Origin: a virus
DNA: 64,000 nucleotides
Reading direction: 5' to 3' (one strand)
Virus record (IMG/VR): IMGVR_UViG_3300030103_003573
Coordinates: 4,156 to 68,155 of that record
Shown here: positions 1-64,000 of the stretch, one piece after another
How the letters are laid out: every line of letters starts with the position of its first letter
Numbering within the stretch: the first letter of the stretch is position 1
Program-made: the position numbers and the translations under genes
Notes under the pieces: model-generated
The model's input: only the letters and a program-made list of their open reading frames with translations
Database searches by the model: none
Told to the model about the DNA's origin: nothing

Positions 1-2
1 AC

Positions 3-299
3 GGAAGCATTTGGCTTTACGCTTACTACACGACTGCACAGCACAGCACCAGCACGAGCAGCAATAGTGCCGCCGCCACAATCGTCAATTACCGACTCGA
101 CTCGCTTACTGGCGTCGGGACTCAATTTTTAACCACTCCGCCGATAAGAGGCGCTGACTCAAGTAGTCGTTTTTCTACGGGGTATTTATATTATGAGGTG
201 GCAAAACTCGAGGTTGTCGGAGGCGAGGTTTTCGTGACCGACCAGCTAGTAAACGGGCCGATCTATGTAAATGAGCTTTCTGACTCTGTTCTTTCTTAA
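3..299 (+). CDS. 5'-truncated hypothetical (likely virion/tail) protein
   Basis: Open frame from the window edge (GSIWLYAYY...VNELSDSVLS) to TAA at 297-299, co-oriented with downstream tail genes; translated by hand. Confidence 0.6.
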   Translation, partial: GSIWLYAYYTTAQHSTSTSSNSAAATIVNYRLDSLTGVGTQFLTTPPIRGADSSSRFSTGYLYYEVAKLEVVGGEVFVTDQLVNGPIYVNELSDSVLS

Positions 300-316
300 C
301 TTAAAACCAAATCATT

Positions 317-805
317 ATGGCAACTATCAGCAAAAGTAGCGCGCAGATGTCCTTGACCGGGACGTGCACGCCGCAACGAACAAACGTGAGCAATTCCGTC
401 TCGGTGGGATCTGCTCTTTCCACAAAATCATTTACTGACGCAAACGTCATTTACTCAATTAAGGTCACCGCTACCGGATCAACTGACGTTGTGAGTATTG
501 CGCTTGCAACTGGTGACGCAACCGCAACGACTGGTTCGCCAACAATCGCAGACAGCGGGGTGGATTTTGAAGGCGCAGACATTGGAACCGCTACAAAAAT
601 TTATGCAATTCAGGTGGAGCAGTTAGTTGACGGCGCAATGGCCGTTGATGGCGCGTTCACTGAATTTAACGGGATGGCAAAAGCAGGCGATAAGGCGCTC
701 TTCGTTTACAACGACGGAGTGGCGGTGACTAGCGACGTCCTTCTACTAGACCTTAACGCAACTGGCGTAAGCGCTGCTGTAACAGTTATCGGAAAAACCG
801 CGTAG
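317..805 (+). CDS. Putative beta-rich virion structural protein
   Basis: 162-aa Ser/Thr/Gly/Ala-rich ORF in a tightly packed operon upstream of the fibre. Confidence 0.6.
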   Translation: MATISKSSAQMSLTGTCTPQRTNVSNSVSVGSALSTKSFTDANVIYSIKVTATGSTDVVSIALATGDATATTGSPTIADSGVDFEGADIGTATKIYAIQVEQLVDGAMAVDGAFTEFNGMAKAGDKALFVYNDGVAVTSDVLLLDLNATGVSAAVTVIGKTA

Positions 806-816
806 TTTATAAAAGC

Positions 817-1197
817 ATGGCCAATATTGAACTCCAGCGTGGTCTAAATCAGACCATTAATGTCACCTACCTTCTGGCCGGGCAGACTACTCCGGTTGAC
901 CTCGGAGATTCTGGGGTTTATTCGGCTTCAATGGTAGTCCGTCGCAAAAGCGGCGAGAGCCTACAAGGCGCGGTTATTGACACACTAACCACTGCCAACG
1001 GGCGAGTAGTGTTGATTGATAATCCAGGTTCCGACGGTCCAAATATTCAATTGAAGTGGAACACCGCGCAAAGCGAAGCGCTACCAAATGAAGATCTGGT
1101 TATTTCTGGCGACCTAAAAATAACCAAGGTTGCAGACTCTCAAGTCGAACACCACATTCGCCTTACATTCGCACTAGACCAAGAAATCGTAGCATGA
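817..1197 (+). CDS. Putative tail-fibre adaptor (BppU-N-like) protein, copy 1
   Basis: MANIELQRG...PNIQLKWNTAQ...GDLKIT; clear homolog of 59894..60301; ATGA overlap with the fibre gene. Confidence 0.6.
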   Translation: MANIELQRGLNQTINVTYLLAGQTTPVDLGDSGVYSASMVVRRKSGESLQGAVIDTLTTANGRVVLIDNPGSDGPNIQLKWNTAQSEALPNEDLVISGDLKITKVADSQVEHHIRLTFALDQEIVA

Positions 1198-4100
1198 GCG
1201 TCACCGACAGCATTACAATCACCCAAGCAACCAATAAAGTCACCGTAACCGCTCAGGGCTCCGTAGGCCTTAACGCGGGCGGACAAATTGACGGCAACCT
1301 GGAGGTCACAGGAACGCTTGCGGTAGGCGGCAACCAACTTGGAAAAGACGTTAGATTTTGGGGGGAAACTGCAAACAAGTATTTCCTGTGGGATGCCAGC
1401 CAAGACAAAGTAATTATCACTGGGGACTTGCAGGTTGATGGCACGACTACAACAATCAATTCCACCGTTGTTAGCATAGCCGATCCGGTTTTCTCTTTGG
1501 GGGGCACAAGTGTCCCGACATCATCGGACAGCAAGGATAGAGGGATAGAGCATTTTTATTACGACACTTCCGCCGGGGTAGGTAAGCGCGGATTCTTTGG
1601 CTGGAGCAACGCGGATAACGCTTACAAGTTTTTGACCGATTGCCCAGACCCTTCCGGCGCTGAGATCTTTACCGGGACGGCTGGCAATCTTTTGACTGGC
1701 AACATTACCGCAGACAGCGCCAGTTCTTCAGGTCACATTAGCATTGCAAGGAACGGCCTGAATCGGTTGAAGTCAATGCTGGCTAACAATGATGGAGGGT
1801 GGCAATACGAGGGCAGCTCGGGCAACGTATTTTACGCAGGCGCAAGCGGTAACGATTACGTCATAAGAGACGGCAGCTTTTCAACAAGTGGCGATCTCCG
1901 CTTTATTGTTAGTCAGTCAGGAAACGTTGGAATCGGAGGAGTTACGGCACCAACTAGCTTGTTGGAAATAGCGGGAGACTTGGAAATTTCACCCACTGAG
2001 CCCACCATTAATTTAAATAGAAATAATGGCTCTTATAGTTGGAAGATTGTAAATGGCGCAGGAGGAGGTAACTTTCCGACATCTACGTTCAACATTGCGA
2101 ACAACGCAGGAAACCCAGTTATCACTGCGATTGACAGCGGAAAAGTCGGGATAGGAGTCGCCACCCCGACAAAAATTCTGTCTGTGAAATCAAGTGGAGC
2201 AGACGACGGAATCAGCTTAATAAAATCAAACTCTTCGAGCCTTATTGCCTCGCTTACCCAAACAGGAACGGGAGATGGAGCGTTTGTAGCAAAGAACGCC
2301 AGTGATGTCACAGCGCTTCTTTTGAGAGCGCAAGGAAACTCTTACTTTAACGGCGGAAATTTAGGGATAGGAGTCACGGCACCTGCCACAAAGCTAGACG
2401 TCGCTGACAAAATCCGCGTTGCGGAAAATAGCAACGTGGCGTTTTACGGTGCAGATTTCGTAAGGCTGTTTGTGAATCAGTCTTACTCTTTTACTGATTC
2501 TGGCGGCACGGTAAAAGCTAAGGTTGGACTTGCTGGAGATAGTTTTTTTAACGGCGGCAACGTCGGCATCGGAGTTACAAATCCGGTATATGACTTAACG
2601 GTTGCGGGTAACATTGGCCTCACCACCGGAACGACTAATTCTATCTTCCTGAACAATGGAAACGTCAGCGTAAAAGGGGATAGCAACAACAAGCTATTCC
2701 TTAATGCCCTCGACGAAATAAGACTAAGCACAGCGTCTACCGAAAGATTGAGAATTGAGTCCGGCGGCCTTGTGCGGGTATTCGGTGATCTTCAGGTGGA
2801 CGGAACAACGACGACCGTAAACAGCACCGTTGTCACCATAGATGATCCGGTGCTGACTCTTGGCGGCGACACCGCACCAAGCTCCGACGACAACAAAGAT
2901 CGTGGGATCGAATTCCGCTACTACGACGGCAGCGCCAAGATTGGCTTCATGGGCTGGGATGATAGCGCTGGCGGCTTTACCTTGCTGAAAGACGCAACCA
3001 ATTCTTCGGAAGTATTCAGCGGAACGGCTACAAATTTAACTCTCGGAGAGGCAGTATTGACTGACGCTTCTTCAGGAAGCACCCACCGTATTCAAGCAAC
3101 CGGCAATAATTTTTTCTTTCACTTAGCGCACGGAGTCTTCCAATACTCATGCGGCGTGCGTGGAAACAGAGGCTCTTCCGTTGGGATGGAAAGCGGTGGA
3201 ATAAATAGTTATTTGGCGCTATGCGCTGGCGGATCAGAAAAGGTAAGGATCGCAACCAATGGAAACGTCGGCATAGCCAACAATAATCCAGCGCAAAAAT
3301 TGTCAGTCACAGGTAGTGCGGCGATTTCTTCGACTTTATACCTTGGAAGCGAAAGCGCGACTGGAACAAGAATCCAAGCTGATTCAGGCGTAATACGAGG
3401 GTTTTACACTTCAGGGTCAGATGCTAGATTCCACTTGGGTAGGGACGCATTTGCCGGTGGTTACGCAGGTCTAATCATGGGTGGGTCTGGCGGCTACTCT
3501 GGTATTGGGGCGACTACAACTGGGAACGATTTATTGTTCTCAACCAATATGGCGGCGGCAGCGGGAGGTATTGCCACGGAAAGGATGCGAATTGATTCCG
3601 CTGGAAACGTCGGCATCGGAACTACGGCACCGGCAGCTGCGCTTCATGTTTTAGGTAAAACTATAATTCAAGCTCCTGACGGGTCTAACACCACATTAGA
3701 ACTTCGTAATCCAGTTGATAATGATAGAGGTTTTAGATTTGTTTCAGTTGCCACATCTGGCGGTGCTTCTGGAACATTTGATTTAGAAGGCTTTGGCGCT
3801 GGCGGTACTCTTAGATCAGCAATGGATTGGGTACCCGCAGGGAACCTCTCCTTCAATTTAGGCTCTTCTGGTGGTGTTTGGACAACAACTTTTACCAGAA
3901 ACGTAAAGGGTAGGAATAATGCATCACAAGGCGACTTAAATTTGAGGAGTGGGCACAGCAATAGGCCTCTTACATTCGGGATCGATACAACCGAATACAT
4001 GCGTGTTCATTCGGATGGAAATGTAGGGATAGGAGCCGCTTTACCGGCATACCCGCTACACATAAACGGAGCAACCACTGCAACGCTTGCGATCCAGTGC

Positions 4101-7100
4101 AACGGCAACAATGCAGAAGGAAGCAAGATTCGACTCATTGAAGGCAGCAGCAATTACTCAGGCGCGTTTGTTCATTACGATGGGAGCGCCAACGCATTAA
4201 ACATCGGCGTTCACGAAAACAATAACACTACACTTTCTGATGACACAAACGTCATCACCATTCCCCGCGATACGGGGCGGGTCGGCATCGGCACGGCGGC
4301 ACCCAATGCGTTGCTTGATGTGGCAGGGCCTATTTTTGCAGGAACATCCCAGCGGTTAAGTCTAGGAGGGCACCAAGATACCTTCACTGGATCGTTTTCT
4401 ATAATATCCCAAAACGATCACGGAGACTTTTCATTTGCTAGTAACCTACGAGTAGACTCAGACCGCAACTTTACTACTGTCAACAACCACTCCACTATGG
4501 CTGGTGGAGCTATGGTGATAGCTGGTAACGGTAACTCTTTTGGCACCAATTCAATTTACTTCCTAAGCCAACCTTCTGGCAGCACCACTGCTGGAACAGA
4601 AGTGGACGAGGCGGGTGCTAGAATGATCATCAAAAATGACGGAAACGTCGGCATCGGCACTACGAGTCCAGCTTATAAACTTCATAATGCAGGAACCTCT
4701 AGATTAGAGGGTAAAGTAACCTTAGGTGGGAGTGTAAACAATACCATTCAAGGTCAGGGACTTGGAATGAACTTTAAAGCGGCTGGGGATTTCAATTACT
4801 TCACGACAGCCGATGGGGGGTCTCAAAAAATAGTGTTCAAAGGAGACGGCAAGGTCGGCATTGGCACTACGTCACCATCAGCAAATCTCCACATAGCGAA
4901 TGCTGGAGACGCGTCTTTAATTATCGAAGCTGACACAGGAAACAGTGACGAAAACGCAAACCCTAGCCTCGTCTTTAGACAAGACGGCAACAACGTCAGA
5001 GCAGAAGCTGGAATCGTCGGAGACGCAGGTCAGATCTATACTGGCAGCCTTGAGAATAGTGCTTATTTAGGGTCTGTTGGGAATTACCCGTTACAGTTGT
5101 TTACGAATGACACGGCCCGTTTAACCGTTGTCAACAGCGGAAACGTCGGCATCGGAACTACGGCACCTGCGGCCACGTTGCAGGTTAAATCATCCTCTGC
5201 TTCGCATAGTGCCATTATAGGAAGATACGGAAATGATGATGGATTGTTCCTTCATTCTGAGGCCGGATCTAGTCATTACAACTGGATGATCACCACTCAG
5301 GATAATGTTGATAAAGGGTTTGAGATCATCCCATCGACAGCAGTCGGTAATCAAACCTTCTCTACACCTGCTTTTGTTATAAAAGCCGACACTGGAAACG
5401 TCGGCATCGGCACTACGGCACCGGCCACGAAGCTAGACGTCGCTGACAAAATCCGCGTTGCGGAAAACAGCAATGTGGCGTTTTACGGAGCAGATTTCGT
5501 GAGGCTGTTTGTAAACCAGTCTTACTCTTTTGCTAATTCTGGCGGCACGGTAAAAGCTAAGATTGGACTTGCTGGCGACTCTTACTTTAACGGAGGGAGC
5601 GTCGGTATCTCTACTACAGCCCCCGACTACAGGCTCGACATCGGCGGCGATACAGCAAGCACATCCAACACCCTCCGAATGGTTCAGGCTAACGGGGGGA
5701 CTGCTATCAGGATTGGAGCAGGGGGCTTGAGTAATGATGTGACCTTGCTGCGCGTCGATGGTGGCGGCGATCCCCCGCTGGTGCTCGGGGAGTCAGACTC
5801 CGCAGGATTTGGCTTCTCTCTCAAATACATGGGATCGAGAAGCGGCAACGCTAATTCTCTTTCTATATTTTCAGACAACCAAGCCGCCGGTAGCCAAGTC
5901 GAAGCCATCACAATCTTTCAGGATGGCAAGGTCGGGTTGAACAATACCAGTCCCGTTCACACCTTCGACATAACAGGCAGCATTCGTTTTTCGTCAGGCT
6001 CCGTTGCAGATGCTGACCTTACTTTTCAAGACGGCAAGAGGGCGCAATTCGGGAACTCGAACGACCTGACTATTTCCCACAGTGCGAACCACAACTTTGT
6101 GACTTCAAACAACGGAGACATTCGGTTCACTACAAACAGCACCGAAAGACTTCGCATCGAAGACACCACCGGCCTTGTGAGGGTCTTCGGTGATCTTCAA
6201 GTAGACGGCACGACGACCACAGTCAATTCAACTACGGTCACGTTAGATGATCCGGTCCTTACATTGGGTGGAGACACCGCACCCTCTTCCGACGACAACA
6301 AAGATCGCGGGATAGAATTCCGTTATTACGACGGTAGCGCAAAGGTTGGCTTCATGGGGTGGGACGATAGTCATGATGGATTTACTTTCTTAAAAAATGC
6401 AACGAACTCCTCTGAGGTGTTCAGTGGAACTCCTGCGCGAATAGTAACCGGCGCAATTACCGCAGGAGGCAACATGAACCTTCTGAATAATCAGATTGAA
6501 AAATGTTCTGCTATTTTAGGATCTGGCGCTACTGGCGACTTATCTCTAAAAGACGGCGATGGGACAGAGTTCCTGCGTCTTGATGCCAGCGCGAACGAAA
6601 CAACTCTCAGCAAAAATCTGACCGCAGCAGACAACGTAATGTTTAAAGCTGGAACCGATGGCGATCTGAGAGTGTTTTTTGACGGGTCGAACGGCAACAT
6701 CGCAAACGTCACAGGCGATTTAGTAGTGTCCACAAGCACTGCTCAAAGAAAGATTTTCATGCGAGCGCCTGATGGCTCGGGAGGCGTTACTAACTACATG
6801 ACGTTTGATGGGTTTTTTGGTTTTACCACCCTGCAAAAACGGCTTCGCGCAGAGGATAATGTAAAAATTGAAGTCGGCGGTACAGGAGATTGTTATTTGG
6901 AGCACGACGGCACTGACTCTGAAATAACAAACCAGACTGGCGACCTATACATCAAGAACACTGCCGACAATAAAGACATCATCTTCCAGTCTGACGATGG
7001 TAGTGGTGGGGTCCACACCTACTTCTTCCTCGACGGCAATACCGGCTACACCAACTTCCCTGACGCGAAGCACCTGTCGTTTGGAACAGGACACGATTTC

Positions 7101-9248
7101 CTAATCCATCACGACAGCAACCATACTTACCTTGAGCAGAACGGAACGGGGCATCTGCACATCCGTCAAAACACAAACGATGGGGACATACTCCTCCAGT
7201 CAGACGATGGCAGCGGCGGTCTTGCTACTTACATAACCATAGACGGTAGCGCCACTAGAACGAATTTCCACAAGAACGTAAAGCTTGAGGATGACGTTGT
7301 GCTCGGTCTTGGCAATGGATTTGACCTCTCGCTTTATCATAACGGAACGGAGTCGTTCATTCAGAATGAAGTCGGCGATCTAACCTTTAGACAAAACCAA
7401 GACAACAGGGATATTATTTTCCAAGCGGACGACGGTAGCGGTGGCGTAACAGAATACTTGCGTTTAGACGGAGGTTTTAGTGGGCCACAAATAAGAATAC
7501 CGGACGATGTTGGTGTCAACATTGGTAACGGTCTTGATTTGAGAATCACCCATAATAGTAACGGTAGTTTTATCAGTTCGGTCGGCAATAATGCGGGAAA
7601 TTTCCACATCCGACAATCGAGTCCAGATCAAGATCTGATATTCATGGCAGACAACGGAGTGAGCGATGGCAACATGGCTACTTACTTCTTCTTGGACGGA
7701 TCAGCCGCTACCCACGATGGGTCAAATACTACCGCCCTTTTCACCGTATTCCCTGACAAGTCACGTATCAGTCTTGGCACCTCGAATGATTGCTACCTGT
7801 ATCACGACAGCGCGGATACTTATATTGAGAATGCAACGGGCGACCTTGAGATAATCAACGGGGCCAACGATAAAGACATCCTTTTCAAATGTGATGACGG
7901 CTCCGGCGGTCTTGCTACCTACATGACCATAGACGGGTCAGCAGTATCAACGACTCTACAGAAAACCCTTAGAGCAGAGGACAATGTAAGAATAGAGGCG
8001 GGAACTGGCGGAGACTTTCAAATTGTCCACAGTGGCGCTCATGCGTCCATGACCAACGCTACAGGCAATCTTACTATCCAACAACAGGCCGACGACTCTG
8101 GGATCATTTTCATGAATGATAACGGCTCTGGGGCGACGACCGAATACTTCCGCCTCGCTGGAGAGCTAGCAAACGGCACAAATGTTTTCACCCGCTTCCC
8201 CGACAATAGCATACTTACTTTTGGTTCGAGTAGTGACCTTCAGATCAAGCACGACGGTGCTGTTTCCCTGATAGATAACTACACCGGTGATCTTCATATC
8301 CGAAACTATGCTGACAACGGCGACATCACGTTTAGGAATGACGATGGTTCGGGAGGCGACACGCAGTATTTCCGTTTAGACGGTGGGCAAGCCAGCTCTG
8401 GCAATGTGTTCACAATCTTCCCTGATAACAGCTACATCGGACTAGGTAGTAATGGCTCGGGCGACTTCATCATGGCCCATAACGGGACCAACACGACGTT
8501 CGCGAACTACACAGGAAATCTGGAAATTAGCAATAACACCGACGACGGAGACATTCTGTTCTCGTGTGATGACGGCAGCGGCGGTCTTGCTGAGTACTTC
8601 CGCTTAGATGGTAGTGTTGGTGGCGGTTCAACTGTACACACAGTTTTTCCTGATAATAGTAAAGCTGTTTTTGGAGCTGGTTTAGACACACAAATATGGC
8701 ACGATGGAACAAACTCTTATATAAAACAACAAGGTGGTGGTAATTTAATAATACAACAAACATCTGCTGATAAAGACATCATTTTCCAGTCAGACGACGG
8801 CAGCGGCGGCACGACTTCCTACCTGACCATCGACGGTAGTGCGACCAAAATACAAGCCGACAAGGACTTATGCCTTTCTGACGGTGTATACCTTTACATG
8901 GGGTCGGACAACGACTTCGACGCAAGGCACAACGGCACCGACTTTCAGGCTAGGTGTTCGACAGGGGACATGAACTTCATTCAGGCAGACTCTGATCAAG
9001 ACATGGTGTTCCAATGTGACAACGGGAGCGGATCGCCGACGCCCTACATCACCCTCGACGGTAGCGAAGAAGAGGTCGTCTTCAGCAAGAAGATAAGAGC
9101 CACAGCTATCATCCAAAGCCCGTCATCAAGCATAACACCAGCAAACAATGGCGAGCTGGTCGTTGAAGCCACTACGAACAGCAAAATTACGTTCAAGTTG
9201 AAAGGGACCGATGGAGTTGTCAGAAGTGCTGTAATTACCTTATCTTAA
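1194..9248 (+). CDS. Giant modular tail fibre / receptor-binding protein (2684 aa)
   Basis: About 14 GNVGIGxxxP-type junctions, three GDLQVDGTTTT...KDRGIE neck modules, and a C-terminal array of ~70-aa units containing DIIFxxDDGSGG. Confidence 0.85.
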   Translation: MSVTDSITITQATNKVTVTAQGSVGLNAGGQIDGNLEVTGTLAVGGNQLGKDVRFWGETANKYFLWDASQDKVIITGDLQVDGTTTTINSTVVSIADPVFSLGGTSVPTSSDSKDRGIEHFYYDTSAGVGKRGFFGWSNADNAYKFLTDCPDPSGAEIFTGTAGNLLTGNITADSASSSGHISIARNGLNRLKSMLANNDGGWQYEGSSGNVFYAGASGNDYVIRDGSFSTSGDLRFIVSQSGNVGIGGVTAPTSLLEIAGDLEISPTEPTINLNRNNGSYSWKIVNGAGGGNFPTSTFNIANNAGNPVITAIDSGKVGIGVATPTKILSVKSSGADDGISLIKSNSSSLIASLTQTGTGDGAFVAKNASDVTALLLRAQGNSYFNGGNLGIGVTAPATKLDVADKIRVAENSNVAFYGADFVRLFVNQSYSFTDSGGTVKAKVGLAGDSFFNGGNVGIGVTNPVYDLTVAGNIGLTTGTTNSIFLNNGNVSVKGDSNNKLFLNALDEIRLSTASTERLRIESGGLVRVFGDLQVDGTTTTVNSTVVTIDDPVLTLGGDTAPSSDDNKDRGIEFRYYDGSAKIGFMGWDDSAGGFTLLKDATNSSEVFSGTATNLTLGEAVLTDASSGSTHRIQATGNNFFFHLAHGVFQYSCGVRGNRGSSVGMESGGINSYLALCAGGSEKVRIATNGNVGIANNNPAQKLSVTGSAAISSTLYLGSESATGTRIQADSGVIRGFYTSGSDARFHLGRDAFAGGYAGLIMGGSGGYSGIGATTTGNDLLFSTNMAAAAGGIATERMRIDSAGNVGIGTTAPAAALHVLGKTIIQAPDGSNTTLELRNPVDNDRGFRFVSVATSGGASGTFDLEGFGAGGTLRSAMDWVPAGNLSFNLGSSGGVWTTTFTRNVKGRNNASQGDLNLRSGHSNRPLTFGIDTTEYMRVHSDGNVGIGAALPAYPLHINGATTATLAIQCNGNNAEGSKIRLIEGSSNYSGAFVHYDGSANALNIGVHENNNTTLSDDTNVITIPRDTGRVGIGTAAPNALLDVAGPIFAGTSQRLSLGGHQDTFTGSFSIISQNDHGDFSFASNLRVDSDRNFTTVNNHSTMAGGAMVIAGNGNSFGTNSIYFLSQPSGSTTAGTEVDEAGARMIIKNDGNVGIGTTSPAYKLHNAGTSRLEGKVTLGGSVNNTIQGQGLGMNFKAAGDFNYFTTADGGSQKIVFKGDGKVGIGTTSPSANLHIANAGDASLIIEADTGNSDENANPSLVFRQDGNNVRAEAGIVGDAGQIYTGSLENSAYLGSVGNYPLQLFTNDTARLTVVNSGNVGIGTTAPAATLQVKSSSASHSAIIGRYGNDDGLFLHSEAGSSHYNWMITTQDNVDKGFEIIPSTAVGNQTFSTPAFVIKADTGNVGIGTTAPATKLDVADKIRVAENSNVAFYGADFVRLFVNQSYSFANSGGTVKAKIGLAGDSYFNGGSVGISTTAPDYRLDIGGDTASTSNTLRMVQANGGTAIRIGAGGLSNDVTLLRVDGGGDPPLVLGESDSAGFGFSLKYMGSRSGNANSLSIFSDNQAAGSQVEAITIFQDGKVGLNNTSPVHTFDITGSIRFSSGSVADADLTFQDGKRAQFGNSNDLTISHSANHNFVTSNNGDIRFTTNSTERLRIEDTTGLVRVFGDLQVDGTTTTVNSTTVTLDDPVLTLGGDTAPSSDDNKDRGIEFRYYDGSAKVGFMGWDDSHDGFTFLKNATNSSEVFSGTPARIVTGAITAGGNMNLLNNQIEKCSAILGSGATGDLSLKDGDGTEFLRLDASANETTLSKNLTAADNVMFKAGTDGDLRVFFDGSNGNIANVTGDLVVSTSTAQRKIFMRAPDGSGGVTNYMTFDGFFGFTTLQKRLRAEDNVKIEVGGTGDCYLEHDGTDSEITNQTGDLYIKNTADNKDIIFQSDDGSGGVHTYFFLDGNTGYTNFPDAKHLSFGTGHDFLIHHDSNHTYLEQNGTGHLHIRQNTNDGDILLQSDDGSGGLATYITIDGSATRTNFHKNVKLEDDVVLGLGNGFDLSLYHNGTESFIQNEVGDLTFRQNQDNRDIIFQADDGSGGVTEYLRLDGGFSGPQIRIPDDVGVNIGNGLDLRITHNSNGSFISSVGNNAGNFHIRQSSPDQDLIFMADNGVSDGNMATYFFLDGSAATHDGSNTTALFTVFPDKSRISLGTSNDCYLYHDSADTYIENATGDLEIINGANDKDILFKCDDGSGGLATYMTIDGSAVSTTLQKTLRAEDNVRIEAGTGGDFQIVHSGAHASMTNATGNLTIQQQADDSGIIFMNDNGSGATTEYFRLAGELANGTNVFTRFPDNSILTFGSSSDLQIKHDGAVSLIDNYTGDLHIRNYADNGDITFRNDDGSGGDTQYFRLDGGQASSGNVFTIFPDNSYIGLGSNGSGDFIMAHNGTNTTFANYTGNLEISNNTDDGDILFSCDDGSGGLAEYFRLDGSVGGGSTVHTVFPDNSKAVFGAGLDTQIWHDGTNSYIKQQGGGNLIIQQTSADKDIIFQSDDGSGGTTSYLTIDGSATKIQADKDLCLSDGVYLYMGSDNDFDARHNGTDFQARCSTGDMNFIQADSDQDMVFQCDNGSGSPTPYITLDGSEEEVVFSKKIRATAIIQSPSSSITPANNGELVVEATTNSKITFKLKGTDGVVRSAVITLS
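2376..2554 (+). repeat. Internal fibre module duplicated at 5415-5593
   Basis: ATKLDVADKIRVAENSNVAFYGADFVRLFVNQSYSF...GLAGDS occurs twice, with mostly synonymous nucleotide differences. Confidence 0.9.
2562..3029 (+). repeat. Fibre module plus neck shared with 63238-63705
   Basis: The first ~190 bp differ at about 3 synonymous sites; the neck part is more diverged but nearly identical in protein. Confidence 0.9.
3264..3351 (+). repeat. 88-bp exact repeat of the window end (63913-64000)
   Basis: aacgtcggcatagccaac...cttggaagcg is identical at both loci, offset 60,649 bp. Confidence 0.95.
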
Positions 9249-21738: not shown

Positions 21739-22854
21739 TCACTTCTCCGAAAGGGTCCACCTTTCTGGAGTGCGGGTGATAATGTCTTGATCCTCGCAAG
21801 CGTCAAGAAATTCTTCCACATTTTTCCCCTTACCTTGTTTTTTAGCTACGATCTTAGAAATCTTTGTGACGCTCAGTGACGCTTCTGCGAGAAGATCCTG
21901 CTCAGTTATCCCGTGCTGTTTTGCCAAGTCAATAAGTCCTTGATTGTCGGCTACCTTTCGTGACGAACCCATCGAACGCAAGGTGAACTTATCGTATTCA
22001 GCCCCTTCCTTTGCGACTTCGATTGCTTTCTTGCGAATCATGTCTGACCACTTTGAGAGCACTGCACTGACTGCAAACATCTTCTCAAGCTCTACAGGGT
22101 CATCGACTTTTCCCACATCGAATTGTGGCAGGTTTGCATCAAGCTGTTCTGCAACTTGCTTTGCTAACCCACCGAGCGCAGGGCACTTTTCTTCGTGGCG
22201 ACAAAAACCACAAACGGCAGTAGGCTTAAGTGCTTTTCTTTCTGGTGTCCCATCCTTCCATTTTGGTCGGGAGATTTGTGCGGACTTAATCACTCCAGTG
22301 ATTGCTGCTTGCAAGGCAAGAGTGTCCTTCCGTTTAAAGGTGTGATGAAGGGTGACCGATCTCTGCGGAACGTAGAACACAAACGTGATCTGCGTAAGAT
22401 CTGGGAATCGTTGGAACGCACCGATTGTGTATGCCCAAGCTTGCCAGTTACATTCAGGCGAATCAATTTTTGACACTCCCGTTTTGTAGTCAGCCATTAC
22501 TGCTGTTCCGTTATCAAAGATTGTTAGGCGGTCACAAGTCCCCCATGTAAGAACACCATCGTTGAGTTGAATATCCAACGCTATCTCCATGTGATCTTCA
22601 GCAACTTCGTCGCGCCCCTTTGCGATTTTCAGAAACTCGTCTTCTTCATCTACGATCTGCTGGTAGATGTCTACTTCATCCGCGCCCCTCAGTTCGGACG
22701 GGTCACGAACCTCTAAAGCCTCATGAATCCGAGTCCCTTTTTCAGCGGCATACGATGTCCCATCCTTGCCGTGATATCCACTACAGGTCGCTAAATACTT
22801 AAGTGCTGACGGGGAGAACTCAGCATGATCTCGGTCTGCATGTTGGGGTTGCAT
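21739..22854 (-). CDS. Cas4-like PD-(D/E)xK exonuclease (DUF2800-like)
   Basis: HAEFSPSA...C, GTRIH, WGTCD, DYKTG, QAWAY, CGFC...CPA. Confidence 0.85.
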   Translation of the reverse strand: MQPQHADRDHAEFSPSALKYLATCSGYHGKDGTSYAAEKGTRIHEALEVRDPSELRGADEVDIYQQIVDEEDEFLKIAKGRDEVAEDHMEIALDIQLNDGVLTWGTCDRLTIFDNGTAVMADYKTGVSKIDSPECNWQAWAYTIGAFQRFPDLTQITFVFYVPQRSVTLHHTFKRKDTLALQAAITGVIKSAQISRPKWKDGTPERKALKPTAVCGFCRHEEKCPALGGLAKQVAEQLDANLPQFDVGKVDDPVELEKMFAVSAVLSKWSDMIRKKAIEVAKEGAEYDKFTLRSMGSSRKVADNQGLIDLAKQHGITEQDLLAEASLSVTKISKIVAKKQGKGKNVEEFLDACEDQDIITRTPERWTLSEK

Positions 22855-29799: not shown

Positions 29800-32700
29800 A
29801 TGTCAGAAGAACCGTTTAACCCGCTTGATCGACTCAATCTAACAGGCCCCGATGGGCCTTTGTCTGTCAATAAACTAGAAGTTTCCAGCTACGACGATTG
29901 GTCAAGTGGACAGCCTTCTCAAGATCCTCTTCAGGCCCACCTTGGTTATGGGGATTACCTGCGCGAAGAATACATAAAGAATAAAGGCTACAACGAAGAC
30001 GTTGAAGTTAGTATTCAAAGCGAGTTAGGAGAAGCATTAGCTGCAAAAGGTCTTCTTACAAATGAGAATAGTGATGACGTTGTATCTCAGATAGACGCAT
30101 ACAACGAACCGACACTAGATCAAAAAGTGCGTGACATGGTAGCGCACACTTCGCTGGGGCAAGATGAGTGGCACAACGGAAACGCATACCTTGAGAGAAA
30201 CGAGGGTGCCAAGACGCCTGAACAGATCCAGCGGTTGGCGGAAAACGCTCTCGCTTCTGTCAACGCTACGCGAAACGATGTGCTTCAAGCAAAGCTAGAT
30301 GCAGGTGAGATTAGTTTTGGACGCTTTACTGACGCTCAAGGGAACAGTTTCATCAAGGCGGGTGACTCTGCTATGGATTTACCATTGCATGAAGCCTTGC
30401 GTAAATCAAAAGAAGCAGGGGGTGGTGTCAGTCTTAGTGACGCAATAGGCATTGAGCAGGTTGGTTTGCTGAAAGTAGCTGATGGGGTAAATATCCCACG
30501 CTACAAAATGATGCAGCTTGGTGAAGTTGAGAGCTTGATTAGATCTGAACTTGCTAACGATGATGACTTATCCATCCAGTTAGAAGCCATTGGTAAAAGA
30601 ATGGCTGAAAGAGACTATAGTTCTTTTGATCATTTTGAAGAAGGGTTCAGGAAGAGAGTAGCACAACCTATCAGGGCCGGACTTGAGACTGTCATTGGCG
30701 TGATTGGGGATTCTAAGCCTTCTGGGGTAGCACGCGAGAAAGCTATTGATCAGGCGATGCTCGATGACATCGACTCGACTGTCATGGGTATCGCTAAGAA
30801 GTTTAATAAAAACCCAGAAGACGTTCGATTAGCTATTCAGGAAATCGCCGTCCAAAACGCGCCACTTAAAGTATTTAAGGATAAAGATAAACTAGCTCTC
30901 AACATACGGGATGACGGATATGGACTGCCTTTTGTTCCTATCGGCGTCAAACTCGATGACGATCTGTTTGAAAAGTCCCTTGCTGCAAGGACTGATCTTA
31001 CCGAAGCAACAAAGAAAGCTATTACCGCAGAACGGGATTTCTTTGCTACAAATCACTTTAGTAACATTTCAAATATACTTGCGAACTCAGATCTTTCTAA
31101 GAAGTGGTTAGAGCATTTGAATGCCGGACGCGCAGCTAAAGTTTCTGACAAGGAAATCCTATTCTCCTTTACGTCAAACGAAGATAACAAGCCGTATTTA
31201 GATCTTCCTATCTTTGGTGACCTTTACCTCAAAGGTAGTGATATTACCCGCCCGTTTTCGACTGCGTTCTCAACAGTTTTTGCACTGTCAGGAGCAGACT
31301 GGGCCAAGAAACATTTGGCTAACGTAGCCGATGATCAGAACAACCGGAGAGAACTGGCTGAACTTTTTGGTGGTAAGCTGGGGATGGCTCAAGATCTCGC
31401 AACATTGATTCCTGAAGTCACTGTAGATATCGCGGCCACTGCTCTCCTGTCTAGGTTCGGAGGAAGAGCATTAGCAACCAAAGCTGCTGCTGTAAAAGCA
31501 CCGCTCTACGCGAGCATGACAAAGAAGGGTGTCCTAAAAGCACTGACAACAAATGCTTTTAGGCGTGGTGCAGGAGAGAGCACTGAACAACTTGCTGAAA
31601 AACTAGCGTCACAAAACCTGATCCGTAGTGCTACCAGCAAAACAGCACTAGAAGCCCTTGAAGCTTACAACAAAGTAAACCTGAAGAACTTAACTGTAGG
31701 CGCTATTGGACTTACAGCGGCGAACAGATCTTCTGGGGCAACATATGGAACCGTTTACAATTCCATGTTGAAGTCTGGAGCTACTGAAGAAGTAGCGCAT
31801 GACAGAGCACTGGGAACTGGCATGGTTGCAGGTGCTGTCACCGGATTAGTCACAGGTGGGTTCTCCTACTTTGGTCGTGGTGGTATGGAAGATGCCCTTT
31901 TGAGCGGTATGTCCTACCGCAATATGAAAACTGTCACTGAGCGTATTGTTCAAAAAGCACCTTACGCACAATTAGAGGGCGTGTCCGATGCTGTTTTCCA
32001 ACAGGCAATCAAAGAATCTACGAAAGCAGTTCTGAAAGGTAACTTTTTTGGTAAGTCGTTTGTCAAAGCGGGGGCTGAAGAATTTGCGGAAGAGTCAATA
32101 GATGAATTTATAAACACCTTTGTTACGGATGCAGGTCTTGAACAAGACACTCCGTTCTTTGATCACCTCAAACACTCTCTGTATGCAGGAACACTTGGGG
32201 GTATCTTGGGTGCTGGCGCTCCAGCGGTGAACGCAGCCGCAAGAAGACTGCGACCTGATCTTGTGGGAGACCTTATTCAAGACGCTACCCTTGAGCAGAA
32301 CCTAATCAACGATATTACAAACCGGCTTAGGGAAGCCAACAGTAGTGTTACCGCTGATGTTGTCCGTGATATTCTCACCAGAGACCTCACTCCTGACGCA
32401 GTTAGAACTCCAAGTCAGGAAGATATTGATGCACAAGAACTCGCACAGCAGGACGATAGCGAGGAGGTAAAACAACAAGCGCAGTTCCTTCTTGAGATCA
32501 TGCGGTCAACTCCCGAAGACCAGATCCAAGAAGAAGTTGATGCTGTGAGGCAACAAAGAAGATCCAGAAAATACAGATCTGCTTACGCGCATAGTTCATT
32601 TGGAAATGAGATGGCGTATAGAGAAGATTTAGCGCAGCCTGTTATTATAAACGAGAAGGGTGAAGTGTCTGACTTGGCAGGTGTCGGGCTTACTCTAAGG

Positions 32701-49593: not shown

Positions 49594-49634
49594 GAGGGTT
49601 AACAAGCGTTAACCCTAAGCGGAAGGTGTCTACT
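49594..49634. repeat. 41-bp direct repeat containing palindrome copy 4
   Basis: gagggttaacaagcgttaaccctaagcggaaggtgtctact is identical to 50049-50089. Confidence 0.95.
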
Positions 49635-50016
49635 AACTCACTATTCCAAAAGTGACAGTGTTGCTCTCATGCTCTGCTCCACTTCCCTCTGGTCCGAATG
49701 AGGTAATGGTAATACAGCCACCGCCTTTCATAGTTTCCACATACCACTTTCCTTTTCTCTGGCGCACCTCGAAACCCAGATTGAAAAGAACACTGGCTTG
49801 ATTGATTCTCCTTTTGGTGAGTTGAGTCCAATGCCCTTTGCCATCTTCATCCTCACCAGTGTTCAAGGTCACCTTGTAATGAGGGTAAGCAGCGGAATCT
49901 GACTCAGCAGGTTCAAATGAAACGATATCAGTTTCATACAGCTGGACGATAGTCTTGCAACCTTCATGCCTGATGGTTGTGGCTTTCTCGAATTTGTATT
50001 GTAATGGAGTTTCCAT
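49633..50016 (-). CDS. Phage hypothetical protein
   Basis: VTLNTG...TKRRINQAS...FEVRQRKGKWYV; exactly bracketed by the 41-bp repeats. Confidence 0.75.
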   Translation of the reverse strand: METPLQYKFEKATTIRHEGCKTIVQLYETDIVSFEPAESDSAAYPHYKVTLNTGEDEDGKGHWTQLTKRRINQASVLFNLGFEVRQRKGKWYVETMKGGGCITITSFGPEGSGAEHESNTVTFGIVS

Positions 50017-59893: not shown

Positions 59894-60301
59894 ATGGCTA
59901 ACATCCAGTTACAACGAGGACAAAACCAGCAGATCGACGTTACATTTAAAAATCCTGCGGGGAGCGTCATAGATCTTGATCCCGACACCATCACTTACGA
60001 CGCGGAGTTAGTCATAAGGCAAAAAGAAAAAAACAAGTTTGCAGGTGCTGTTGTTGATGTTCTTAGACATGGCACCTCCAGCCCAGCACGACCCGATGCC
60101 GATGGTCGTATTACTTTTGCGTCTACTGCACCAAATATTTCCCTTAAGTGGAGCACTGCCCAAGCAAACCTCTTGCCTAACTTATCGCAGACTATTGCTG
60201 GTGACTTAAAGATTACGCAAACTTCAGCCGGAGATTTCCAGAATGAAGTAGTGCATCACATAAATCTCAAGTTTGATATAATCCCCGAAATCATAGAATA
60301 A
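59894..60301 (+). CDS. Putative tail-fibre adaptor protein, copy 2
   Basis: MANIQLQRG...PNISLKWSTAQ...GDLKIT; homolog of 817..1197. Confidence 0.65.
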   Translation: MANIQLQRGQNQQIDVTFKNPAGSVIDLDPDTITYDAELVIRQKEKNKFAGAVVDVLRHGTSSPARPDADGRITFASTAPNISLKWSTAQANLLPNLSQTIAGDLKITQTSAGDFQNEVVHHINLKFDIIPEIIE

Positions 60302-63300
60302 TGGCTAATGAGTCAGTAACGATCACACAGACCACCAACTCAGTTTCTGCTACACAAACCACCGATTCGGTAACAGTAGTTTCTGAGGGGCCAATAGGTC
60401 TTAACGCAGGGGGCACCATCTTAGGTGCCCTTACTGTTGGCGTCGATGGCACCGGCCACGACGTAAAGTTCTTCGGGGATACCGCTGGCAAATACATGCA
60501 GTGGGACCAGAGCGCCGATAAGTTGTTCATCAACGGCGAGCTTGAGGTCAACGGAGGTGCCACCACGTTCAACTCAACCGTCATCACGATTGACGACCCC
60601 ATCTTCTCGCTTGGTGGTCAGCAGCGGACTGACGCGCTGGACGACTCAAAAGATCGCGGCATAGAATTCTTTTACCACGACGGTGCCCAGAAGACTGGCT
60701 TCATGGGTTACGACGACAGTGCGGATGCGTTTACATTCCTGACGAGCGCGACGAACTCGAACGAAGTCTTTAGTGGGACGGCAGCGACGGTCCAGATGGG
60801 CCATCTTAATTTCGTCGAGGGTTCCGGCGGCCAGATCCAGTTCAATGGGACTGAGAAGATCAATATAGGCACAAATAATATTGGGCTTCGTAAGCCTCTT
60901 TACGGCATGACTGGAACGGTTGACATCGGTCTGTCGAGTAATCCGTTTCGCGATGGTCATTTCAGTGGGACACTTAACACAGGAGCAGTCACTCCAGTCA
61001 CTGACAATGCTCACGCTCTAGGTGTATCTCAAACGAAAGAGTGGAGCGAAGTCGCTACCCGCAAAGTAACAGGCAATAACAACAGGATGGTGCTGGAGCT
61101 AGACAGCGACACCGTTGTTTTAAGGGATCATAACACAGTGGGGACTGGCGTTGTGTTAAAGAGCCGGAATGCCGCTGGGTTGACTTTGGACAATTCTGGA
61201 GACGTAACCTTTGGGGGAACCATAACTGTCCCACAAGGCACCGCCGGAACTGGAGGGACAGGATCTATCGTCAACGCCTCGTTTAACGACTTTGGTCTCA
61301 ACTTCACCGGAAACAATAAGCTGCAAACATATCGCGGCACAACAGTCCTTACAGAGACAGGACAAAGCGGTGCGCTCGGATATTTAGTTATCGGTTCTAC
61401 TTCGCTTCTTGGTTTTGCACACAATGCTGTCGGAGGCACTCCGGGCGATGTAAGCTTTTCGAGGATTTCATCGGGAGTGCTAGGACTTGGCACCGGTGCG
61501 CTTGGCGAGACTGACGGAACGCTGCTGGCGGGGAAAGTAGGAATCGGCACTACGGCACCTTCAGAGTTGCTCCATGTATCCAGCGCCACTTCTCACAAGC
61601 CTGTCTTACTAGTAGAAAATACAAATGCCGATTCTTCGGGCGCGTTTTTAAGGTTGTTCAAGAATACGGCTAGTGCTGGCGTTGATGACAACATTGGGTC
61701 AATCCAGTTCCAGTCGAACAACAATCAAGGCAGCGGTCGCGTATTTGCTCAGATTGCTGCCCGAATCCATGACCCTGTTGCTGCTACTGCGACTGGCGAG
61801 CTGAAGTTTAACACTTTCGTCAACGGGACAGACACGACAGTGATGACCATGCTGGACGGAAACGTCGGCATCAATCAAACCTCACCGACAGCACCGCTCC
61901 ATATCGGCGGCGGGGTATCTGACACCTACGCAAAGATCGGGCACTACTGGACCTTTGCCAGTAACACCCTGTCCAGCAGCGGAGCCTTGAAGATCAACGC
62001 CGGATCAGGCGAAGATATTCATCTTCAGGAAAACGGCACAGACCGCCTAGTCGTAAGGCGCACGACCGGCAACATCGGGATAGGAGTCGCGGCACCTTCT
62101 ACTAAGGTTCACATCTTAAACGGAACGGGCAACGATCCGCACATTCGTCTCTCTGATCCGAATAGCGCCAGCACAAATAGTGCTACCGGATACTTGGAGG
62201 TGTATCACGGTAACACGACCGGCAGGGCCGGATACTTTGGGATGATCACCAACGCTGAAATGGCGTTGGCTACTACTACCTCAAGCGGCAACTTTCGAGT
62301 TTACACTGGAAACAACCAAGCTGCGCTTTCGATTGACAACTCACAGAACGTCGGCATCGGCACTACGGCACCGGCAAGAAAATTTCATGTCAACGCAGGG
62401 TCTTTAGATGTTGGTATTCGTCTGGAGAGTTCAGACGAATTGGCTAAAATTGAGCTGCAAGATAACGGGGGCACGGCTTGGATTGGTGGTAAAAGCGGAG
62501 GACTCCATCTACAAGGAGGTGGAAGTGATACCGTTGGATCGCTTGTAGTAAAAGACGGGAACGTCGGAATCGGCACTACGGCACCGGCTGCTCTTTTGCA
62601 TGTATCAGGCGCAATGGGTTCGGGGGTAGATGGCCCTGACAAGACGGGGATAAGGCTAACCAATACTCCAAACGGACAGACATGGAGAGTTGCATCAGGA
62701 TCAGGAGGGGTAAACCATAGCTACTTTACCATCGCAAGAGCAGGGCAATTCCCAGCTTTGACCATAGATACCTCTGACAATGTCGGTATTGATGTAACCA
62801 ATCCAAGCGAAAAGCTCGAAGTCGCAGGAGAGTATATACTTGTTAATTCTACAAATTCATTTGGTGGGCTAAGGATAAAAACTTCTTCAGGAACAGATCG
62901 CGGCTATGTTTACGGAGACGGGAGTGGGCTGCATTTGTTAGACAATTCTGGAGGATATGCTCTTACCGTAGAGAATGACGGGACTAAAAATATCGGTATA
63001 GGCACTACGTCACCGGCAGCCGCACTTCATGTTAGCAAAGATTCTGGTGGGGCGATTTCTGAAGTAGCCCACTTCGTAGGAGGTGGTTCTACCGACGACA
63101 AAACCCAAATTACTGTTGGCGGAAACACAAGTTCCGCACTGGTTTCATTCGGATTCCGCAATACTGGATCAGGTTTTGGTTACATTGCCAACGCTTCAGA
63201 CGCAGAGGTTCTAACCATCGACGGCGGGAACAGTCGGGTCGGCATCGGAGTCACAAATCCGGTATATGACTTAACGGTTGCGGGTAATATTGGCCTCACC

Positions 63301-64000
63301 ACCGGAACGACTAATTCTATCTTCCTGAACAATGGGAACGTCAGCGTAAAAGGGGATAGCAACAACAAGCTATTCCTTAATGCCCTCGACGAAATAAGAC
63401 TAAGCACAGCGTCTACCGAAAGATTGAGAGTTGAGTCCGGCGGACTAGTGCGCGTCTTCGGCGACCTGCAAGTAGACGGCACGACAACGACTGTCAATAG
63501 CACCGTTGTCACCATAGACGATCCGGTGCTTACGCTAGGCGGCGATACCGCACCAAGCTCCGACGACAACAAAGATCGCGGGATAGAATTCCGTTATTAC
63601 GACGGTAGCGCAAAAGTCGGTTTCATGGGATGGGACGATAGTGCTGGTGGATTTACTTTTCTTAAATCAGCAACCAACTCTTCTGAAGTCTTTAGCGGCA
63701 CGGCTGCAAGTCTAGCAACTGGCGCGATATCCGCTTCTGGAGATGTAGTAATTAGTGCATCAAATTCTAGGTTCGAGGTGATTGACACAGATAGCAGTCT
63801 GAAGACTGTTCTTGCTGCGGGGAATACATTGGGAGCCGTTGGCACCTACACGAATCACCCGCTCCACATCAGAACACGCGCACTAGACGCAATCGTCATT
63901 GATACGTCACAGAACGTCGGCATAGCCAACAATAATCCAGCGCAAAAATTGTCAGTCACAGGTAGTGCGGCGATTTCTTCGACTTTATACCTTGGAAGCG
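60301..64000 (+). CDS. Second modular tail fibre (3'-truncated; absent from the ORF track because no stop is reached)
   Basis: MANESVTITQTT...GLNAGG...KDRGIEFFY..., nine GNVGIG-type junctions, in frame at the window end (NVGIANNNPAQKLSVT). Confidence 0.85.
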   Translation, partial: MANESVTITQTTNSVSATQTTDSVTVVSEGPIGLNAGGTILGALTVGVDGTGHDVKFFGDTAGKYMQWDQSADKLFINGELEVNGGATTFNSTVITIDDPIFSLGGQQRTDALDDSKDRGIEFFYHDGAQKTGFMGYDDSADAFTFLTSATNSNEVFSGTAATVQMGHLNFVEGSGGQIQFNGTEKINIGTNNIGLRKPLYGMTGTVDIGLSSNPFRDGHFSGTLNTGAVTPVTDNAHALGVSQTKEWSEVATRKVTGNNNRMVLELDSDTVVLRDHNTVGTGVVLKSRNAAGLTLDNSGDVTFGGTITVPQGTAGTGGTGSIVNASFNDFGLNFTGNNKLQTYRGTTVLTETGQSGALGYLVIGSTSLLGFAHNAVGGTPGDVSFSRISSGVLGLGTGALGETDGTLLAGKVGIGTTAPSELLHVSSATSHKPVLLVENTNADSSGAFLRLFKNTASAGVDDNIGSIQFQSNNNQGSGRVFAQIAARIHDPVAATATGELKFNTFVNGTDTTVMTMLDGNVGINQTSPTAPLHIGGGVSDTYAKIGHYWTFASNTLSSSGALKINAGSGEDIHLQENGTDRLVVRRTTGNIGIGVAAPSTKVHILNGTGNDPHIRLSDPNSASTNSATGYLEVYHGNTTGRAGYFGMITNAEMALATTTSSGNFRVYTGNNQAALSIDNSQNVGIGTTAPARKFHVNAGSLDVGIRLESSDELAKIELQDNGGTAWIGGKSGGLHLQGGGSDTVGSLVVKDGNVGIGTTAPAALLHVSGAMGSGVDGPDKTGIRLTNTPNGQTWRVASGSGGVNHSYFTIARAGQFPALTIDTSDNVGIDVTNPSEKLEVAGEYILVNSTNSFGGLRIKTSSGTDRGYVYGDGSGLHLLDNSGGYALTVENDGTKNIGIGTTSPAAALHVSKDSGGAISEVAHFVGGGSTDDKTQITVGGNTSSALVSFGFRNTGSGFGYIANASDAEVLTIDGGNSRVGIGVTNPVYDLTVAGNIGLTTGTTNSIFLNNGNVSVKGDSNNKLFLNALDEIRLSTASTERLRVESGGLVRVFGDLQVDGTTTTVNSTVVTIDDPVLTLGGDTAPSSDDNKDRGIEFRYYDGSAKVGFMGWDDSAGGFTFLKSATNSSEVFSGTAASLATGAISASGDVVISASNSRFEVIDTDSSLKTVLAAGNTLGAVGTYTNHPLHIRTRALDAIVIDTSQNVGIANNNPAQKLSVTGSAAISSTLYLGS

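Follow-up and report, generated by a model that had tools for sequence, protein, structure and literature searches.

How can unrelated parts of a phage tail fibre be joined, lost and rearranged in frame, and which DNA would serve such exchanges? Tail fibres set phage host range, and the question is raised by two fibre genes in a window of 64,000 nucleotides (nt) from the IMG/VR virus record IMGVR_UViG_3300030103_003573 (bases 4156–68155 of a single viral contig of 68,155 bases). In both genes, here called fibre 1 and fibre 2 (Table 1), modules are bounded by a short motif with the consensus G-N-V-G-I-G-T-T-x-P, and we consider it likely that the DNA coding for this motif acts as short homology for the in-frame duplication, deletion, conversion and exchange of modules. 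Both fibres match the tail-fibre/structural families phrog_697, phrog_9942 and phrog_18345 of PHROG, and fibre 1 resembles fibre and structural proteins of T4-like cyanophages at less than 60% identity; the motif is present in T4-like cyanophages, too. These matches agree with an assignment of the predicted proteins as tail fibres; a search of Pfam at E ≤ 0.01 matched no family for either of them.

The 21-mer AACGTCGGCATCGGMACTACG occurs without mismatch at 3606, 4644, 5142, 5397 and 62347, with one mismatch at 62560 and with two mismatches at 4851, while the number of copies expected by chance is 0 (100 shuffles). All occurrences of this linker word that the initial annotation had listed, including a one-base variant near 62560, are therefore verified. 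At the protein level, the pattern x[NKRS][VIL]G[ILV]xxxxP is matched in frame at 22 sites, of which fibre 1 has 13 and fibre 2 nine, and a variant with an extra codon at 1920 brings the total to 23 copies. All 23 lie on the plus strand and are confined to the two fibre genes; none is inverted. A second spelling, GGGATAGGAGTC, coexists with the AACGTCGGCATCGGMACTACG word and is used at the sites 2139, 2355, 4017 and 62068.

The modules between the motifs measure 67–138 amino acids (aa), with two exceptions of 235 and 226 aa that contain a separate conserved domain. Without the motif and the module ends, the remaining cores are alike at E ≤ 1e-3 in just 2 of 210 module pairs, both of them recent duplicates, and the other 208 pairs are unrelated, in line with the initial description of mostly unrelated modules of 65–140 aa. 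As the cores are unrelated, simple duplication followed by decay cannot explain the identical letters of the motif. The duplication of one module and the reuse of modules in the second fibre, both seen at the outset, could be verified as well: 2355–2570 and 5394–5609 are 86% identical (89% for 2376–2570 and 5415–5609), and fibre 2 contains at 63238–63709 a block of fibre 1 (2562–3033) with 89% identity. The differences in base composition that had been pointed out between neighbouring modules are real, but modest. The GC content of 3625–3999 is 0.43–0.45, within the overall range of 0.41–0.59, and the GC content at third codon positions varies among modules from 0.305 to 0.59 (chi-square 32.5, 11 degrees of freedom, p = 6e-4). 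A domain of about 100 aa (DLQVDGTTTTVNSTVVTIDDPVLTLGG...DNKDRGIEFRYYDG, hereafter the DLQVDG domain) has three copies in fibre 1 and two in fibre 2, including both N-termini, and is 60–76% identical to a stretch of T4-like cyanophage structural proteins of about 2000 aa that carry PF18454.

At the motif, synonymous codons are conserved beyond the background codon bias, as the annotation had supposed. Valine is encoded by GTC in 17 of 19 cases (background frequency in the fibres 0.27), threonine in column 6 by ACT in 10 of 11 (0.25), threonine in column 7 by ACG in 10 of 16 (0.18), and alanine by GCA in 9 of 10 (0.28). In a codon-pair test on 19 sites, from which three partners of recent duplicates had been dropped and for which the fibres' own codon usage served as background, the ten motif columns use the same codon in 488 of 1114 amino-acid-identical pairs, against an expectation of 326.9. 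Simulated codon draws gave a mean of 326.6 with a standard deviation of 17.8 and a maximum of 415, and 488 was reached in none of 5000 draws, whereas the 24 flanking columns yield 230 same-codon pairs out of 731, against 221.8 expected (1.04-fold). The excess is uneven among columns, with Val 2, Thr 6 and Ala 8 showing it strongly. That each amino acid might simply have one optimal codon was considered as its cause and is ruled out by the column-specific codons of threonine and glycine. The two adjacent threonine columns, 6 and 7, hold different fixed codons, alike in 76 of 136 pairs within a column and in 9 of 131 pairs across columns, so that one preferred codon cannot account for them.

The synonymous-codon rule looks general for this class of fibres. 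An unbiased degenerate scan finds the motif at no fewer than 120 loci (at least 120), and in 39 unrelated fibre open reading frames (ORFs) with at least five sites each, same-codon pairs at the motif number 5929 against 3916.8 expected (1.51-fold, with a ratio above 1 in 38 of the 39), compared with 1.04-fold in their flanks (above 1 in 19 of the 39). Within an ORF, the same-codon fraction amounts to 0.564, compared with 0.382 between GC-matched loci. Each gene thus has a house spelling of its own, as would be expected from concerted evolution and from gene conversion or exchange inside a lineage. A universal spelling was rejected: the window's 12-mer AACGTCGGCATC is present in only 12 of 245 sites (7 of 119 sampled loci), where 1.4–1.9 are expected, and AT-rich phages spell the motif differently, so that the exact word is lineage-bound. 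What the loci do have in common is a bias in the third letter. Among 453 sites from 83 unrelated loci, which range from 31% to 61% GC, C is enriched at columns 0 and 2 (152 vs. 68.6 and 105 vs. 45.9 expected) and G at columns 3 and 5–8 (for example 102 vs. 40.3 and 108 vs. 46.4); the flanks are neutral, and the bias is seen also in ORFs below 40% GC, with z-scores that are inflated as sites within one ORF are not independent. A hairpin or cruciform reading of these letters (CGTC...GACG; columns 2/5, 1/6 and 0/7) was tried and is not supported, complementary letters numbering 123, 113 and 86 against 121.7, 111.8 and 91.2 in within-ORF shuffles, a comparison of low power given that sites are alike within an ORF; column pairs that do not mirror each other, used as controls, behaved like the mirror pairs. 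This C-to-G switch of the third letter within the motif is the strange feature of these joints.

The order of the modules is not fixed across relatives, another point on which the initial annotation had staked its proposal. A protein search yielded 512 relatives, of which 16 were fetched and 13 were used, P0016, P0022 and P0078 being left out as more distant. Together with the two fibres of the window and pieces of the viral records G001 and G002, these 13 proteins make up 17 fibre sequences; joints in P0001–P0012 were compared at the protein level only. Splitting the 17 sequences at the motif yields 136 modules, which fall into 22 clusters (at least 75% identity over at least 80% cover), and 20 recurring clusters are left after one redundant sequence is dropped. 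All 20 have more than one right neighbour, the same is true on the left side for all 19 of the recurring clusters that are able to have a neighbour there, and a single labelled adjacency out of 24 (A-C) is seen twice. Modules of the window are thus held by relatives at 75–100% identity next to different neighbours. Among these relatives is G001, a record of 61.6 kilobases (kb) rated 99% complete, which combines in a single gene an N-terminus of the fibre-2 type (92% nucleotide identity), the fibre-1 module 4000–4303 (90%), the fibre-2 module 62556–62819 (95%), the block that starts at 2556 (2556–2871, 91%) and the same C-terminal end as fibre 1. Over the final 200 or so residues, fibre 1 is 80% identical to the end of the G001 fibre. 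In G002, the fibre-2 modules 61531–61872 and 61858–62096 stand in swapped order.

Where blocks of similar DNA begin and end, they do so at the motif more often than expected by chance. Among 12 fibre genes, blastn blocks of at least 100 nt and at least 78% identity number 52 and have 42 distinct endpoints in motif-bearing regions. Eighteen of these endpoints fall inside the 30-nt motif, compared with a mean of 4.2 and a maximum of 13 in 10,000 random placements, and 25 of the 42 lie no more than 15 nt away from a motif (8.3 under the null). Two endpoints classed as far sit on motif variants outside the pattern, and most of the remaining far endpoints lie in the motif-free DLQVDG domain; some are the partners of contig ends.

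Alternative joins are also present in environmental samples. With one exception, the runs that hold this fibre DNA are labelled marine metagenome, and four runs of a second study hold 0.21–0.59 of the words of fibre 1. Contigs of four runs were placed on fibre 1, namely of a possible source run (X1) and of three runs of the second study (X5–X7), and parts of fibre 1 left uncovered in X5–X7 were not counted as evidence. Twelve of the 17 listed loose contig ends lie on a motif or within 2 nt of one. Five of the 12 are fibre 2's own sequence (one confirmed by search, the others read by eye) and seven are joins absent from the window. In three runs, the sequence after 3616 continues in a way not found in the window; a different upstream module meets 2559, and another one seems to meet 2563. 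One contig of X6 joins 61828–61857 of fibre 2 to position 5394 of fibre 1, with only 15 bases shared by the two parents at the junction. Another X6 contig joins 2768 to 6174, that is, two copies of the DLQVDG domain, with the in-frame loss of 3405 bases or 1135 codons, which yields a fibre of a length found in relatives. A contig of 1841 nt from X1 covers six motif sites completely and another two in part, in the order of the window. In X1, contig depth is 27 over 1194–2420 and 16 over 3583–5423, with an alternative continuation from 3616. These depths, which are rough for contigs, would be consistent with the co-existence of two variants of the fibre that diverge at the motif at 3616.

What the motif might be in the folded fibre is suggested by its similarity to solved structures. 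Residues 784–1479 of fibre 1 match fibres of Bdellovibrio bacteriovorus (8OND, E = 5.4e-10; 8OJN, 7.4e-6; 8OML, 0.002), and the alignments centre on ERMRI-x-x-x-G-N-[VL]-G-[IL]-G-T-x-A-P-x-x-x-L-H-V, i.e., on the motif and the ERMRI strand that precedes it; leucine is found at +13 in 18 of 21 listed sites. For these mosaic adhesive trimer (MAT) fibres, the consensus V-G-G/N-pi-x-x-P-x-x-x-L is described as that of capping loops that edge intertwined trimeric beta-helix domains, and the passages on these loops report them in S74-type phage fibres too and call MAT fibres mosaic and chimeric (Caulton et al., 2024, PMC10769870). By this similarity, the motif would form the capping loop with which trimeric beta-helix domains are edged, and each module is most likely one beta-helix shaft domain. 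Since the modules seem to be shaft domains, the term "receptor-binding" that the initial annotation had applied to them is unproven, and it is the C-terminal end that is conserved between relatives. In Pfam, fibre 1 is devoid of a Peptidase_S74 match and would group with the non-S74 type of fibre, while the C-terminus of fibre 2 lies beyond the contig. The C-terminal third of fibre 1 (about 6900–8900) contains five copies of a repeat of roughly 70–75 aa with the signature D..F..DDGSGG..Y...DG, assigned to phrog_13518.

Taken together, the favoured mechanism would work as follows. The fibre would be a string of trimeric beta-helix shaft domains, each opening with the capping-loop peptide G-N-V-G-I-G-T-T-x-P-x-x-x-L, and the 20–30 bases that encode the loop, being kept nearly identical in their letters, would offer short homology for in-frame homologous recombination. 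Such recombination might take place between copies within one gene, leading to duplication, deletion or gene conversion, between the two fibre genes, or between co-infecting relatives. The outcome would be a population of fibres that are built from one pool of modules in many orders and numbers without a dedicated recombinase, and the identity of the motif letters would be a cause of exchange, its footprint, or both. Homology at the motif would drive the crossovers, and module content would alter host recognition. The idea of the initial annotation that the junctions act as in-frame crossover points is supported by the block ends on the motif and by the alternative joins, with crossing-over itself being inferred. 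Its further suggestion that neither an invertase nor a reverse transcriptase takes part agrees with the absence of inverted copies and with a scan of 31 proteins, in which no recombinase or reverse-transcriptase family was matched.

Several observations weigh against this mechanism. Exact homology between copies is short: among 228 motif pairs other than recent duplicates, only seven have at least 20 exact bases in common (29 at most), with a median of 7, so that many copies could recombine with one another only rarely. No protein for annealing or strand exchange could be identified in the phage, in which only a PD-(D/E)XK nuclease of the DUF2800 family was found. Gly 0, Gly 3, Pro 9 and Leu +13 are conserved, yet they show no codon excess, and the third-letter bias across 83 loci shows that some constraint besides exchange within a lineage also shapes the codons. 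The motif is a domain boundary as well, and selection for chimeras that fold would place the surviving junctions there whatever the mechanism. No crossover has been observed, and the sequences used for comparison all come from metagenome assemblies. Of the 57 relatives found by their capsid gene, no more than about 12 show this type of fibre in the stretch examined. The window ends where the contig ends, and the last 88 bases (63913–64000) are a 100% copy of 3264–3351 in fibre 1. The assembly therefore broke at a repeat, and a common genome for the two fibres is unproven.

The point about foldable chimeras can be taken as an explanation in its own right, in which recombination is illegitimate or random, only chimeras joined at domain boundaries fold, selection alone brings the block ends to the motif, and the identity of its letters has a separate cause. 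It would suit a motif that is the structural edge of each beta-helix domain and of which 204 of the 228 pairs share fewer than 15 exact bases. We think it unlikely, as it predicts neither a synonymous conservation that is confined to the motif nor the gene-specific house spellings nor the 18 of 42 endpoints within a stretch of 30 nt. The third-letter bias that is common to 453 sites in 83 unrelated loci, with neutral flanks and also in ORFs below 40% GC, might instead point to a dedicated signal in the DNA, that is, to motif letters that are a recognition or initiation site for a recombination function of host or phage, comparable to the GRINS repeats discussed below. Such a site seems quite improbable when the spelling varies by gene (same-codon fraction between loci 0.382), the exact 12-mer is found in 7 of 119 sampled loci, no candidate enzyme is among the 31 proteins scanned, the hairpin reading of the mirror pattern is unsupported and the z-scores suffer from non-independent sites. 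A wider conjecture, tentative and rather doubtful, is that the mirrored bias (C-ending codons in G-N-V, G-ending codons in G-T-T) is a shared DNA-level recombination signal, functionally GRINS-like, and that fibres of distant marine phages, perhaps even the MAT fibres of bacteria, draw on a common pool of beta-helix modules by means of a universal in-frame linker.

It is very unlikely, in our view, that the motif is purely a repeat at the protein level, in which translational selection for accuracy, speed or folding has fixed the codons of a critical loop that has no role in recombination. That the peptide is widespread and strongly conserved (at least 120 loci and the matches in the PDB) and that C-ending codons dominate columns 1–4 in the window would be expected in this case; the use of ACT at Thr 6 and ACG at Thr 7, with a cross-column identity of 9 in 131, and the missing codon excess at Gly 3, Pro 9 and Leu 13, columns of equal conservation, would not, and the shuffled order of modules and the block ends at the motif would be left unexplained. 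Hardly credible is an artefact of assembly, by which the mosaic orders would be chimeric contigs formed across repeats of co-occurring strains. The contig of the window does break at an 88-base repeat, several contigs of relatives end in the fibre gene, and modules of 200–300 nt are common to strains. Against this, the orders come from different samples and assemblers (IMG/VR contigs, ENA, JGI and Logan proteins), the X6 contig crosses a junction at which its parents share only 15 bases, and the 1841-nt contig of X1 spans six whole motif sites in the order of the window. The Logan contigs of these runs are, we presume, built from words of 31 bases; if so, each word of the X6 join was read directly. 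Recombination guided by the homology of the motif is the reading that we consider likely.

Other genes of the window encode a family-A DNA polymerase, a primase-like protein, a large terminase, a helicase, a PD-(D/E)XK nuclease (DUF2800) and an amidase. The capsid protein has 57 relatives among uncultured viral contigs of about 25–76 kb, and it has neither a match in 50,697 deposited phage records nor a Pfam family. A small ORF (MANI[EQ]LQRG...) stands immediately before the fibre gene in every relative with such a fibre. The two copies in the window, at 817–1197 and 59894–60301, match no Pfam or PHROG family, and their product may be a factor for the assembly or attachment of the fibre. Apart from this small ORF, the 5 kb before fibre 1 bear no likeness to the sequence upstream of fibre 2 or to the capsid-gene regions of relatives. 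An over-circularised contig, in which fibres 1 and 2 are strain versions of one locus, was considered and, given these unlike upstream regions, tentatively set aside; the contig does end in a repeat. Bases 1–4950 of the contig, of which bases 1–795 of the window are the tail, contain three consecutive ORFs of 304–387 aa in three different frames before the cassette of fibre 1; they show no likeness to the capsid-gene neighbourhoods of relatives, and a run of 10 N is found at contig bases 325–334. The gene for the DUF2800 nuclease (21742–22854, minus strand) lies beside an unassigned ORF of 217 aa and one of 163 aa near the polymerase genes, and this region is a candidate for a recombination or repair module of the phage. 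One ORF of 4274 aa (29800–42624, plus strand) takes up a fifth of the genome and has no Pfam family at E ≤ 0.001. Intergenic direct repeats at 49594–49640, 50016–50095 and 50456–50509, spaced by about 440–455 bases, contain the palindrome GGGTTAAC..GCGTTAACCC and might act in regulation or as terminators between short genes that run leftward.

Table 1. Fibre genes, neighbouring small ORF, motif copies and DLQVDG domain in the window.
Feature	Position	Strand	Remarks
Small ORF, 126 aa	817..1197	+	Directly before fibre 1; paralogue at 59894-60301, 135 aa, before fibre 2
Fibre gene 1	1194..9248	+	ORF, 2684 aa: N-terminal domain, 14 motif-bounded modules, C-terminal repeat region
Motif GNVGIGGVTAP	1920..1952	+	One extra codon
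Motif GKVGIGVATP	2139..2168	+	Spelling class GGGATAGGAGTC
Motif GNLGIGVTAP	2355..2384	+	Duplicated module 2355-2570 begins
Motif GNVGIGVTNP	2556..2585	+	Opens block common to fibre 2 (63232 onward) and G001; loose ends at 2559 (run X6) and 2563 (X5)
DLQVDG domain (DLQVDGTTTT...DNKDRGIEF), internal copy	2765..3058	+	Further copies at 6170-6463 and 63441-63734
Motif GNVGIANNNP	3261..3290	+	Opens 88 bases identical to contig end
Motif GNVGIGTTAP	3603..3632	+	Exact 21-mer; alternative continuation after 3616 in three runs
Motif GNVGIGAALP	4017..4046	+	Opens module 90% nucleotide-identical in G001
Motif GRVGIGTAAP	4275..4304	+	Closes block common to G001
Motif GNVGIGTTSP	4641..4670	+	Exact 21-mer
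Motif GKVGIGTTSP	4848..4877	+	Two mismatches to 21-mer
Motif GNVGIGTTAP	5139..5168	+	Exact 21-mer
Motif GNVGIGTTAP	5394..5423	+	Exact 21-mer; opens second copy of duplicated module; new join to fibre-2 module (run X6)
Motif GSVGISTTAP	5595..5624	+	
Motif GKVGLNNTSP	5925..5954	+	Last of fibre 1
Fibre gene 2	60301..63999	+	ORF open at 3' end; first 1233 aa, contig stops inside
Nine fibre-2 motifs, 30 bases each	61531..63939	+	Starts at 61531, 61858, 62068, 62344, 62557, 62776, 62986, 63232 and 63910

The diversification of fibres in the ocean has mostly been deduced from mosaic sequences, and the case described here offers an unusually clean anatomy, with 23 joints, unrelated modules, many orders in relatives and alternative joins in environmental samples. 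The joint is tied to a structurally defined element, the putative capping loop of trimeric beta-helix domains, and the codon-level test separates the conservation of DNA from that of protein. The joints would be natural in-frame seams, and chimeric fibres joined there would probably fold. The C-to-G switch in the third letter gives a concrete hint, open to testing, that these seams are under a constraint at the level of the DNA. Literature searches found nothing on the DNA of a GNVGIGT-type motif, and a search on synonymous conservation, gene conversion or concerted evolution in tail fibres found nothing on phage fibres.

Among systems that vary fibres, the invertase and shufflon systems (Gin, Cin, Min, Rci) use inverted sites and a site-specific recombinase, and diversity-generating retroelements use a reverse transcriptase and a template repeat. 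Both serve the same purpose, that is, to obtain varied fibre ends from one locus. In contrast to the former, all copies of the motif are direct here and no recombinase family is found in the 31 proteins; in contrast to the latter, the repeats are direct and of the size of a module or motif, and no reverse-transcriptase family is found in the same 31 proteins. GRINS, repeats with intense nucleotide skew in polyketide synthase genes, are linked in the published account to gene conversion (2021, PMC8256042). Like the DNA of the motif, they are, in that account, repeated intragenic DNA of biased composition that recodes regions of the protein and is tied to gene conversion between the modules of a multimodular protein. 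GRINS belong to another gene family and other hosts, and here a third-letter switch extends over nine codons, or about 30 nt, rather than over a long repeat. The C-to-G switch (453 sites in 83 loci) and the homogenised spelling within a gene, which were seen here by measures other than the published detection criteria, may or may not be features of the GRINS type. The MAT fibres are alike in the similarity of fibre 1 to 8OND, 8OJN and 8OML and in the same capping-loop consensus at the edges of beta-helices. They differ in being bacterial surface fibres and not phage virion fibres, and fibre 1 is without an S74 chaperone domain; the paper treats protein structure, and its passages on the loops are silent on the conservation of loop DNA or on recombination (PMC10769870).

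The closest parallels are found in phages of enteric bacteria. In tailspikes of E. coli phages, conserved DNA motifs flank the receptor-binding domains and are proposed, in the sections devoted to them, to be hotspots of recombination (Virol J 2023, PMC10408124). As described there, short DNA that is more conserved than its surroundings, across phage genera, lies beside exchangeable parts of the fibre and is proposed to boost homologous exchange. The tailspike motifs, of 20–95 nt according to the same sections, are found once or twice in a gene (one of them is non-coding) and bracket a single domain, whereas here one coding motif stands at every domain boundary.

Recombination of T-even fibres was reportedly treated by Tetart et al. 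in 1996 and 1998, whose work is cited for it by Trojet et al. In the T-even phages, conserved motifs of gp37 and the glycine-rich motifs of gp38 between hypervariable segments are described, in the relevant passages, as guiding recombination (Trojet et al., 2011, PMC3157838). In both cases, short conserved motifs alternate with variable segments, there is no dedicated recombinase, and new combinations of recognition determinants result; in the fibres studied here, exchange endpoints lie at motifs and relatives carry chimeric combinations of the same segments. Motif-guided exchange has thus already been published for T-even fibre and adhesin genes and for tailspikes, and the present case is one of a known type of mechanism. 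The phage studied here is marine and uncultured. Its fibres belong to a different protein family, as no Pfam match was found at E ≤ 0.01, and the likeness is one of mechanism and not of membership in gp37 or gp38. In place of a few joints there are 23 in two genes, located at what appears to be a capping loop of a beta-helix, and whole domains of 65–140 aa are gained, lost and reordered, so that the length of the fibre itself changes.

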